Origin: a virus
Lineage: Duplodnaviria; Heunggongvirae; Uroviricota; Caudoviricetes
Virus record (IMG/VR): IMGVR_UViG_2740892230_000005
Length of the DNA stretch: 7,590 nt
Direction: 5' to 3' (one strand)
Position 1 is the stretch's first letter, and every line of letters begins with the position of its first letter. The position numbers are program-made. This document shows positions 3,001-6,000 of this stretch, one piece after another.

Positions 3001-6000
3001 TCATTATTTGTTGCGAATATCAAAAAGACAGATAGCCAGGACGAGAAAGAAAAGCGAAAAAGCAATACGAATTGAGATGCAGATAGCCGAAGGGTTTATT
3101 GACGGATGTTTGTCTGTGCTGGGGGTAAGACTGGAGATGGACGACTGGCTGCTAAAAAAGTAAAAAATGATTAGTGCGGTCCGCAAAAAGTATGTCAGTA
3201 TGTTAAGAGTGGTTACTTCGCCACACAGCTTAAACCCGCCGCGAGCGGGTTTTTTTATGGCTGAAATCGGTCCAGTACAGTAAACGTGCTGGTGGCGGTG
3301 AATACCTGTCTTTCAGCTTGCTGGCTTTTTCGACAAGAGTTATTGGTGTGTCACGTTAACCGGAAAAGGGAAAAAGACATGCTAAAACAGCAGGATATGA
3401 CAGAAACCGCCAGAGTGGTGTTTAATGAATTAAGCGTTACCGACCCGGCGACAGTCGGGGAGATTGCGCAGAATACTTACCTTTCACGCGAACGCTGTCA
3501 GTTAATACTGACCCAACTATCAGCGGGGTGAACTGGAAAAGCCACATCACCAACTGGTCAGCACATACAGTGAGCTGAACCGNNNNNNNNNNGTGTGCAT
3601 GTTGTGGAAAGCCCGCTGATGATCCCCACCACCTGATAGGTCACGGTCAGGGTGGAATGGGAACAAAAGCGCATGACCTCTTTGTGTTGCCTTTGTGCAG
3701 AAAGCATCACGACGAGCTGCATGCGGATACCGTGGCATTTGAAGAGAAGTATGGCTCTCAGCTGGAGCTGATATTTCGTTTTATCGATCGTGCGCTGGCA
3801 ATTGGCGTATTGGCGTAAGTGGAGAACGAGCATGAACCTTGAAGCCTTACCAAAATATTACTCCCCAAAATCTCCAAAATTGAGCGATGACGCACCGGCG
3901 ACAGGCTCAGGTGGTTTAACGATTACGGATGTGATGGCTGCGCAGGGGATGGTGCAGTCGAAAGCACCGCTTGGGTTTGCCTTATTCCTGGCAAAAGTTG
4001 GTGTTCAGGATCCTCAATTTGCGATTGAAGGTCTGCTCAATTACGCGATGGCACTGGATAACCCGACATTGAACAAATTGAGTGAAGAAACCCGGTTACA
4101 GATCATCCCTTACCTTGTGAATTTTGCCTTTGCTGATTATTCCAGGTCTGCGGCAAGTAAGGCTCGCTGTGAGCATTGTGCTGGTACTGGATTTCATAAT
4201 GTATTGCGCGAAGTGGTGAAACACTCCAGAAGCGGGGAATCTGTTATCAAGGAAGAGTGGGTGAAGGAACTATGTCAGCATTGTCATGGTAAGGGAGAAG
4301 TCAGCACAGCGTGCAGAGGGTGTAAGGGTAAAGGTATTGTCCTGGATGAAAAAAGGACCCGGCTTCATGGCACGCCTGTTTATAAGATTTGTGGGCGTTG
4401 CAATGGAAACCGGTTTAGCCGTTTACCAACCACACTGGCGCGGCATCATGTCCAGAAGCTGGTACCAGACCTGACGGATTATCAGTGGTACAAAGGATAT
4501 GCAGATGTCATTGATAAACTGGTTACAAAGTGCTGGCAGGAAGAAGCATATGCAGAGATACAATTGAGAAATGTGACAAGATAAATGGTTTTCGCCGAAG
4601 ATGACGACATGATGCTTGCATTTTTCAAAAAATATGGATAAGATTTTCCCAACGATGGGCTTTGTATGTCTACCGTTGATAAGATTTAAGAACCCGCCAC
4701 TGAGCGGGTTTTTTTGTGCCAGATGTCTCATGAAACTATGAAATGGATTGGTGCGTTAAACATTTTTTCTTATTATCTTTTAGATTTTGGAGAGATGGTT
4801 AACGTCTGTATTCCAGAAACTCGATGATTATTTAATAAATTAGTTTCAATGATGCTTCTAGGTTATGACTGTAATGAAAAAGGTATTAATAGCAGCGATA
4901 GGTTTTTGTTTAGTTGGTTGTGCAGGTATGAAATTACCTGAGTATTCGCAAGTTAAAGCAAGTCCGTATTATACAGATTGCCGTGCGTTTGCCATGGATG
5001 TTTATAAAAATGATGGATACAGCAAAATTGCGAAAACTACTATCCTTAGCATGGATGATGTGAAGACTAGATATATTGTGACAGGGTGTGTAGTTGCTAT
5101 GGGGAAAAACACTGTAGAGGAAATCAAAGCTGATCTCTCTGCTAAAGGGAGTTCTTTTGGGCTTATCAGTGGAGCTTGTTCTAGTGCGGCATGTCGGGTT
5201 GATGTAGAGCAGCAAATGAACGCTTATGTACTTGGTAGTTATTATGCTGCAAATAAAAAATTCCCGGATAAAATGAAAGCAGAGTTTTAAGTAAACCTTG
5301 TTTTCGATTATATGTCGAAGATAAATGTTAGTAACGGCATAATAAGTAAATATATAGCTGTGATAGCAACCCGCCACTGAGCGGGTTTTTTGTACCTGTA
5401 AACTTGGTGCAGTACAGTAAACACGCTGGTGGTCGTGAATACTGACTTTTTATCTTGCTGGCTTTTTAGACAAGAGTTATTGGTATGTCATGTTAACCAG
5501 AAGGGAAAAAGACATGATAAAACAGCAAGATATGACAGAAACCGCCGCCGCAGTCCTTCATTTCTTACCTGCTGACAAGTGGGTAACGCCACGCATGATG
5601 ACGAGAACTACCGGAGTAAGCGAAGCCCAGTGCCAGTTAATACTGACTCAGTTAGTTCTGGCGGGTCTGGCGAAGGATAACGGCGGGTACGGGAATAAAT
5701 TCAGACGCTGCCAGTAATGGCGGTTTCCTGCTGTGAAAATGGGCGGCTGGTGGGTGTTGGTAGCACCTGCCAGCCATTCGCTCATGCTTACTGGTCACAA
5801 GCGAACCACGGCCCACTGCTTTAGCGCAAAAGCAGAGTGAGCCTACCAGAGTTACGCTTACTGATCCATGAAAAATACTGTAAAAATAAACAGTGTTGAT
5901 TTAATCAACGCTGATTGCCTGCATTTTATTCAGTCCCTGCCTGATGATTCCATTGACCTGATTGTTACCGATCCGCCTTACTTCAAGGTGAAACCCAACG

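Follow-up and report, generated by a model that had tools for sequence, protein, structure and literature searches.

A small gene with a predicted winged-helix product and a structured leader RNA accompany an M.EcoGII-type adenine methyltransferase in lambdoid prophages

What does a small phage gene do that stands in front of a gene for an orphan DNA methyltransferase (MTase), and is it tied to that neighbour? The question is raised by the window, the whole stretch of 7,590 nucleotides that was analysed (IMG/VR virus record IMGVR_UViG_2740892230_000005, Caudoviricetes), in which a module made up of a leader and a small gene is present in two diverged copies, here called copy A and copy B. The small gene of copy B is intact and is followed by the MTase gene. 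A first, sequence-only reading of the window had likened the small protein to the controller (C) proteins of restriction-modification systems. The follow-up analysis described here found a genuine gene with a predicted winged-helix product, a structured RNA between this gene and the MTase, and a close linkage of all three across phages (Table 1). A regulatory role of the small protein on the MTase is plausible. The preferred reading is that the small protein is an accessory, cassette-specific regulator that may work like the Com/Mom system of phage Mu, and a probability of roughly 0.4 is given to it.

Copy B is a genuine gene, and the proteins of its family measure 63–67 amino acids. In about 30 diverse enterobacterial, Plesiomonas, Providencia and Proteus loci, the ATG is conserved together with a purine-rich GG ribosome-binding block at a fixed distance. 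The median ratio of nonsynonymous to synonymous substitution rates (dN/dS) was 0.10 in the 63-amino-acid group and 0.26 in the Providencia/Proteus group. In profile searches, the protein matched phrog_331, a phage protein family with no function assigned in PHROG, with E=1.1e-24 for copy B and E=1.4e-37 for the intact copy-A type (profile positions 35–98 of 111). Within the conserved patch CQLILTQL, synonymous sites in the codons for Leu, Thr, Gln and Cys are free to vary, which shows that the constraint acts on the protein; a nucleotide-level constraint on the patch, such as an operator or a hairpin inside the open reading frame (ORF), was ruled out by the same variation. As CQLILTQL was part of the patterns with which loci were collected, the invariance of the motif was judged from an exhaustive, pattern-free hidden Markov model (HMM) search, in which the helix-3 core C-[QE]-[LF]-[ILV]-L-T-Q-[LFM]..A-G-L persisted in 97 cluster representatives. 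For the invariant Ile of the patch (window 5640–5642 and homologues), 28 of 33 diverse sequences use ATA, which is rare among enterobacterial codons, and the neighbouring codons vary freely.

The small gene is a recombinational mosaic with a constant N-terminus, at least two middle cassettes, a constant helix 3 and at least two types of C-terminal tail. Recombinants between middle cassettes and tails exist (window 5514–5717; proteins P0051–P0056 and P0062–P0066), and one protein (P0001) carries an internal tandem duplication of the segment from helix 3 to the wing. Among 5426 complete E. coli genomes, about 2300 gave megablast matches to the small gene (copy-A allele).

The winged-helix-like character proposed from the sequence was borne out by structure prediction. 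The AlphaFold2 model (predicted local distance difference test, pLDDT, 86; predicted template modelling score, pTM, 0.71) has three helices (residues 4–17, 26–33 and 37–49) followed by a beta hairpin (strands 53–55 and 63–65), and its best fold matches in the PDB were winged-helix domains. Zalpha (1qbj) was the best of them, with a template modelling (TM) score of 0.83 and a root-mean-square deviation of 1.3 Å; IclR, MarR, TrmBL2 and NsrR (Rrf2 type) domains reached TM 0.6–0.78. Matches in a viral structure library were uncharacterised phage proteins and poxvirus Zalpha-containing proteins. The small protein is predicted to fold as a winged helix and would share the compact fold of three helices and a beta hairpin with minimal winged-helix domains (ADAR1/E3L Zalpha; the N-terminal domains of IclR, MarR, TrmB and Rrf2; PefI/PapI), whereas its sequence identity to them is just 7–24%. 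The contact residues of Zalpha are Asn and Tyr on helix 3 and Trp in the wing; in the small protein, none of these is evident by inspection, helix 3 reads RCQLILTQL and lacks the Asn...Tyr pair, and the identity to Zalpha is 10–16%.

Sequence libraries gave no family assignment for the small protein. In Pfam, TrmB scored 11.9 bits against a cut-off of 25.6 and MarR_2 scored 13.7 against 27, NCBIfam gave chance-level matches alone, and a PDB sequence search with the family profile returned only chance matches such as FtsA (E=0.12). RefSeq sometimes labels the small protein as a TrmB-family regulator, a label that is therefore unsupported by Pfam and NCBIfam at their thresholds. The Mu Com family (PF10122) did not match the small protein of the window, which has just two Cys residues.

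Co-occurrence of the small gene with the MTase, which the sequence-only reading had put forward as a check, proved to be very strong across prophages of many genera. The loci were retrieved through the small protein and numbered about 115 (80 viral contigs and 35 species genomes). Where the DNA reaches far enough downstream, an MTase homologue (58–100% identical) starts 339–355 nt after the start of the small gene, with two exceptions; three loci (L016, L041 and L094) stop short of the MTase position. Linked loci come from Escherichia, Salmonella, Klebsiella, Buttiauxella, Mixta, Mangrovibacter, Plesiomonas, Providencia and Proteus. The exceptions have arisen by decay: the MTase is lost in L118 and degraded in L119, and the deletion of the L004 type also belongs here. 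In L118 (4136–4290), the RNA is kept (111 bits) next to a small gene that is N-terminally truncated as aligned. In the phage collection, the MTase was found in 95 records and the small gene was detectable in 57, and in the listed records found in both tables the small gene always precedes the MTase gene by about 150 bp.

Within the sampled loci, the small gene occurs only beside this RNA and MTase or their remnants. The junction of gene and RNA is intact in more than 100 loci, although the Q modules upstream and the internal cassettes of the gene recombine freely. The terminator scan found no terminator between the small gene and the MTase. Co-translation of the two, which had also been suggested, does not hold, as three in-frame stops lie between the genes and the spacer lengths are not multiples of three; read-through from the small gene into the MTase was ruled out on these grounds.

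The spacer between the two genes measures 134–154 nt across loci and is conserved better than the middle of the small gene. Judged by comparative sequence analysis, the spacer segment of the window is a covarying structured RNA with three helices. In a MAFFT alignment of 32 sequences, which is not biased by structure, 88.6% of the cells were paired and 12 pairs changed on both sides; none of 500 shuffles reached the observed pairing, and slid partners gave at most 44%. A model-fitted alignment of 45 sequences, which is biased by structure, gave 95.9% paired cells and compensatory changes in 26 of 35 pairs. Many of the compensatory changes trace to few clades (Providencia/Proteus and distant phages), so the cell counts overstate the number of independent events. 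Minimum free energy (MFE) folding of the window sequence alone yielded the same helices (z=-2.8), and G-U pairs assign the RNA to the plus strand.

A covariance model detected the RNA in all tested loci that carry the MTase. Its place is immediately before the MTase, as in phiKO2, N15, OS31 and VHML, except in Aeromonas PhAER-1 and Vibrio ST2-1pr, where a Com-like ORF stands in front of the MTase and the RNA lies just upstream of that ORF. The sequence variant of the RNA seen in the window is present in 1065 of the 5426 complete E. coli genomes. Rfam gave nothing in 5393–5867 at E<=1 when the whole window was searched, and only chance-level matches at E<=10 for 5380–5890; no tRNA or known RNA was found in the leader or the spacer. 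RefSeq shows no annotated feature beneath the five RNA matches listed. Searches of the literature on M.EcoGII, on prophage small RNAs (AsxR, AgvB and Pas) and on late-operon methyltransferases, of which coverage was incomplete, turned up no account of the small gene or the RNA. Helix P2 pairs most of the 12 bases right before the MTase AUG, and the sequence before the MTase ATG, ccagagttacgcttactgatcc, holds no Shine-Dalgarno sequence, so that default translation of the MTase is probably poor.

The MTase of the window belongs, on a full-length identity of 81% over 349 amino acids, to the family of M.EcoGII. The M.EcoGII sequence was taken from the machine-read supplement of PMC11551740, and reading errors in it are therefore possible. 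The motifs TDPPYF and FFMGSGST are present (N-terminal DPPY and C-terminal FxGxG). A weak HTH_3-like segment (E=0.043) lies in the central region at amino acids 167–193. M.EcoGII and M.EcoGI methylate adenine whatever its sequence context (Murray et al. 2018, PMC5778455); this non-specific activity was shown for those enzymes, to which the MTase of the window is likened by sequence only. M.EcoGII was reported to be silent in the lysogen, with constitutive clones being slow-growing and unstable (PMC5778455; PMC12707154). In PMC5778455, the silence in the lysogen is explained by general prophage silencing alone, the expression host is described as carrying an mcrC-mrr deletion, and phage 1720a-02 is named as the carrier of a very similar MTase. 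The searched passages of PMC5778455 mention no upstream small gene or leader RNA, and the word 'upstream' is absent from the main text of the paper. In phage 1720a-02, the same small gene and RNA precede the MTase.

Upstream of the small gene, a box of the form CTTGCTG-N12-AGAGTTA is the sole leader element conserved across genera. It occurs once and at fixed spacing in 110 of 126 loci, and none of the loci that lack the small gene has it. The geometry of the box is promoter-like (TTGCTG, 17 nt, TAYNTG), and RNAalifold predicted no conserved pairs in the leader at 5438–5530. The box may act as a weak promoter, as an operator or as a linear RNA signal.

In the preferred reading, the small gene, the structured RNA and the MTase form a cassette in the late operon of temperate phages, between a Q-dependent late terminator and the holin gene, and from this position alone late Q-dependent transcription would be expected. 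Helix P2 would occlude the MTase start and keep default translation low. The invariant helix 3 of the small protein (R-C-Q-L-I-L-T-Q-L..A-G-L) may recognise an invariant nucleic-acid target in the cassette, for which the leader box of its own gene or the leader RNA are candidates, and the protein would tune the timing and the amount of a harmful MTase once Q-modified RNA polymerase passes the terminator, in the logic of Mu Com/Mom. Two relatives bear on this comparison. Vibrio ST2-1pr (L124 1331–1468) and Aeromonas PhAER-1 (L125 ~1362–1550) contain unannotated Com-family zinc-ribbon ORFs between the RNA and the MTase, which match PF10122 at 25.3 and 34.5 bits, respectively, against a gathering cut-off of 22.9; the recruitment of a Com-family gene beside this MTase family makes control of the Com/Mom type plausible. 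An 82-amino-acid upstream ORF in Vibrio ST2-1pr was considered as a homologue of the small protein and ruled out (hhalign E=0.12).

Several observations weigh against the small protein as a regulator of the cassette. The RNA and the MTase are found without the small gene in the close E. coli phages Eeyore (L127 1349–1509) and LLS (L128 1349–1509), where the RNA scores 160–168 bits, the MTase is 78–81% identical and no winged-helix hit was obtained, and they also occur without a detectable small gene in Serratia OS31 and Vibrio VHML. The small protein is thus not an obligatory activator, and its gene is dispensable for the cassette. In N15 and phiKO2, the gp51 proteins (L121 1006–1233 and L122 1003–1230) are winged-helix proteins of 75 amino acids and distant homologues of the small protein (hhalign E=7e-5; top sub-threshold HMM hit), and their gene is not beside the RNA but precedes the annotated late promoter and terminator. 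The MTase of these two phages, gp52, is 55–60% identical and is preceded by the same RNA (38–63 bits), which, unlike in the window, follows directly after the terminator, with the leader box absent and the winged-helix gene upstream of the late promoter. For the small protein itself, no Pfam DNA-binding family scored above threshold, and the proteins of the family are mostly neutral or acidic (net charge -5 to +3, pI 4.4–9.2), which is unusual for a minimal nucleic-acid-binding domain. A sigma-70 scan gave no hit at threshold in the leader, and the leader box is not palindromic.

A more far-reaching proposal, which is regarded as doubtful, is that the RNA represents a new cis-regulatory class that would gate translation of the non-specific adenine MTase in temperate phages of Enterobacterales, Aeromonas and Vibrio. 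In this proposal, the gate would be opened or closed by the small protein, acting as an RNA-binding winged helix, with Com proteins taking the same role in Vibrio and Aeromonas. As a variant, the universal ligand of the RNA may be the MTase itself or S-adenosylmethionine or S-adenosylhomocysteine (SAM/SAH), with the winged-helix protein merely modulating.

Other explanations do not need a regulator of the MTase gene. Ranked next after the preferred reading, as a possible but rather unlikely alternative, the small protein could act at the level of the protein or the DNA product, either by binding the MTase as an inhibitor, antidote or targeting subunit or by binding DNA rich in N6-methyladenine (m6A or 6mA), for instance as a shield against m6A-dependent type IV restriction of the Mrr kind. 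It would be made just ahead of the MTase. Acidic proteins are common in the family, with a net charge down to -5, and several anti-restriction proteins are acidic as well, and the invariant helix 3 (CQLILTQLxxAGL) is mostly hydrophobic, which suits a protein interface. A gene that, in the sampled loci, is found only beside the MTase or its remnants, with an MTase that can occur alone, also gives a helper-like pattern. In addition, prokaryotic winged-helix domains are described as 6mA sensors in the abstract of PMC11037411, and the M.EcoGII expression host carried an mcrC-mrr deletion (PMC5778455). However, one type of small protein pairs with MTase subtypes that are just 85% identical to each other, no DpnI-type winged helices were among the 50 PDB fold matches listed, and the conserved leader box would be left unexplained. 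The leader box has its place in an explanation ranked third and considered improbable, namely that the small protein is a self-contained transcription factor with its own promoter in the box and with targets elsewhere in the phage or the host. The MTase would then be its neighbour by way of a shared insertion-prone slot. Indeed, the slot between late terminator and lysis genes holds unrelated insertions in relatives (lipoprotein gene, tRNAs, stx and esterase genes), and both the promoter-like geometry of the box and the RefSeq label of some small proteins agree with such a factor. This is difficult to reconcile with a junction of gene and RNA that survives in so many loci across genera despite recombination upstream and inside the gene, with a small gene that was never seen beside anything but this RNA and MTase or remnants in the sample, and with the lack of a terminator between the two genes.

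The comparison to C proteins was prompted by a small putative DNA-binding protein being encoded upstream of a DNA methyltransferase. As a statement of family membership it fails on the fold, which is a predicted winged helix with no Xre/HTH_3 match, on the partner gene, as there is no endonuclease gene and the MTase is followed by a terminator and then by holin and lysozyme genes, and on the operator, as no conserved palindrome was seen by inspection. Moreover, the structured RNA separates both genes, and homology to a C protein is very unlikely. Even less credible is the idea that the small gene is not a gene at all and that its conservation reflects an RNA element or a recombination linker. 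It could draw on the mosaic of conserved patches around variable cassettes, since such patches can act as recombination joints, but it is opposed by a dN/dS of about 0.1, by synonymous sites that vary inside the conserved patch, by the conserved start codon and Shine-Dalgarno sequence, by a confident structure model and by the lack of a predicted conserved RNA structure in the leader.

Both modules were found where the sequence-only reading had placed them (3257–3531 and 5393–5717), with a similarity far beyond chance: blastn aligned window 3233–3411 with 5368–5546 at 84.6% over 182 nt (E=5e-50). The identity of 85–90% estimated by eye applies to the 5' part, with 79% of the nucleotides identical in the terminator, 83% in the leader (3260–3378 versus 5395–5513) and 94% in codons 1–11, and it does not apply to codons 12–39, where identity drops to 47%. 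Codons 40–47, which encode CQLILTQL, are again 83% identical at the nucleotide level and 100% at the amino acid level; 23 of the 47 residues of the shared part are the same in both proteins. The lengths of 50 (copy A) and 67 amino acids (copy B) were given correctly, and past CQLILTQL the two copies are unrelated, as had been noticed.

Copy A had been taken for a frameshifted or truncated variant. It is truncated, whereas a frameshift was ruled out by comparison with the intact locus of phage PPyecE_EH1910 (L003) and by the junction sequences. According to blastn, window 3160–3518 corresponds to L003 3501–3859 with 99.2% identity and window 3519–3582 to L003 4733–4796, which lies within the MTase gene of L003. 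From this split match it follows that copy A lost 873 bp: its small gene is short of the final 18 codons, the spacer is gone and so are about 221 codons of the MTase; the intact copy-A-type allele of L003 encodes 65 amino acids. This junction is shared by 7 complete E. coli genomes, in which the MTase is annotated as a pseudogene (in L004, its N-terminus is missing), and complete genomes with the copy A allele are annotated with a hypothetical protein of 50 amino acids. Copy A is what a deletion left behind, and its MTase is dead.

The window is a scaffold, in which contigs are joined at seven runs of ten N (at 111, 919, 1335, 1993, 2530, 3583 and 7320). Four of the seven joins are bordered by paralogous overlaps with 90–96% identity. 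This points to collapsed paralogous prophage repeats, in which neighbouring pieces are not contiguous DNA. Copy A lies on contig 2540–3582 and copy B on contig 3593–7319, and the type of Q antiterminator upstream differs between the copies. Since the copies are on separate contigs of a scaffold joined through paralogs, they represent two different prophage late regions and their adjacency is unreliable. The content of the window is the late-gene control region of lambdoid prophages. In front of the copy B leader, an insertion is bordered by a 24-nt duplication of the late terminator; in a relative (L018), the insertion is absent and the terminator is single, with L018 1–178 mapping to window 4537–4714 and L018 155–310 to window 5368–5523. 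Between the Q82-type gene and the terminator (4616–4717), a promoter-like sequence TTGCAT-17-TAAGAT was noticed, with a predicted transcript of about 65–70 nt that ends at the terminator. This is the position occupied by small RNAs derived from pR' such as StxS, and Rfam gave nothing above chance for the segment.

Table 1. Features of the window, with coordinates counted from its first nucleotide
Feature	Position	Strand	Basis
Q21-like antiterminator gene, upstream of copy A	2783–3163		PF06530 E=1e-52
Late terminator between Q21-like gene and copy A	3232–3259	+	terminator scan
Leader box CTTGCTG-N12-AGAGTTA, copy A	3317–3342	+	read from sequence
Copy A truncated small gene: 47 authentic codons, 3 foreign codons (SAG) and stop; junction between 3518 and 3519	3379–3531	+	blastn versus L003
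Copy A MTase remnant, from about codon 222, cut by the N run at 3583	3519–3582	+	match to L003 4733–4796
Q82-like antiterminator gene of the copy B prophage, setting the late-operon context	3832–4584	+	PF03589 E=1e-53
Late terminator, first copy, after Q82-type gene	4690–4717		terminator scan
Insertion of 654 bp between late terminator and copy B leader	4715–5367	+	mapping against L018
Lipoprotein gene in the insertion, 141 amino acids, lipobox-like LVGC	4865–5290		phrog_4748
Intrinsic terminator directly upstream of copy B, second late-terminator copy, near-identical to 4690–4717	5366–5393	+	terminator scan, stem 5368–5387 and T run
Leader box CTTGCTG-N12-AGAGTTA, copy B, about 35 nt before the small-gene ATG	5454–5479	+	conservation across loci
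Shine-Dalgarno AAGGGA of the small gene, 7 nt before the ATG	5501–5506	+	read from sequence
Copy B intact small gene, predicted winged helix, 67 amino acids and stop	5514–5717	+	phrog_331, AlphaFold2, dN/dS about 0.1
Predicted structured leader RNA of the MTase, 150 nt	5718–5867	+	covariation, covariance model, MFE fold
RNA helix P1, long bipartite hairpin	5739–5756/5764–5785	+	
RNA helix P2, long-range; 3' strand ends 1 nt before the MTase AUG	5793–5802/5856–5866	+	
RNA helix P3, enclosed hairpin	5810–5822/5829–5843	+	
Beta-class N6-adenine DNA methyltransferase, M.EcoGII family by sequence, 350 amino acids	5868–6920	+	PF01555 E=2e-42
Terminator ending the cassette, before the holin gene	6927–6950	+	terminator scan
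S21-type holin gene	6987–7202		PF04971 E=2e-35

Laboratories make wide use of the enzyme M.EcoGII, whose family provides the clearest example of a phage strategy to methylate every adenine. The gene family of this enzyme travels with a covarying leader RNA that is predicted to bury the start region. In enterobacterial lambdoid prophages, including Shiga toxin (Stx) phages, the MTase also travels with a dedicated small gene of the predicted winged-helix type, and in Vibrio and Aeromonas phages a Com-like gene takes the place of the small gene. How a toxic MTase is kept silent and switched on thereby becomes a directly testable question, and an unannotated structured RNA is added to the late region that controls gene expression in Shiga-toxin phages. 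If the RNA indeed gates translation of the MTase together with the small protein, a translational switch of the Com/Mom type would have been rebuilt from unrelated parts.

Two known systems lend themselves to comparison. C proteins are helix-turn-helix proteins of the Xre type that are tied to a restriction endonuclease gene and to C-box palindromes. With them, the small protein shares the small size, a putative DNA-binding nature, the position before a DNA-modification gene and a possible control of timing; it differs in fold class and in lacking an endonuclease partner and a C-box-like palindrome, and an intervening structured RNA is present in the window. The other system is com-mom of phage Mu, in which Com is a zinc-ribbon translational activator of the toxic Mom gene. 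Here, the likeness extends to a toxic, broad DNA-modification enzyme in a late phage operon that is silent in lysogens (PMC12707154), to a small protein gene immediately upstream and to an enzyme start region buried in RNA structure, and the Vibrio and Aeromonas relatives of the window MTase have a true Com-family ORF at that position. In contrast, the small protein of the window is a predicted winged helix with neither a zinc ribbon nor a match to PF10122, the enzyme is a beta-class N6-adenine MTase and not Mom, and the RNA is a predicted three-helix element of 150 nt, whereas Mu has a single hairpin. Finally, the window-type small gene is dispensable in some close relatives, and its role as an activator is putative.

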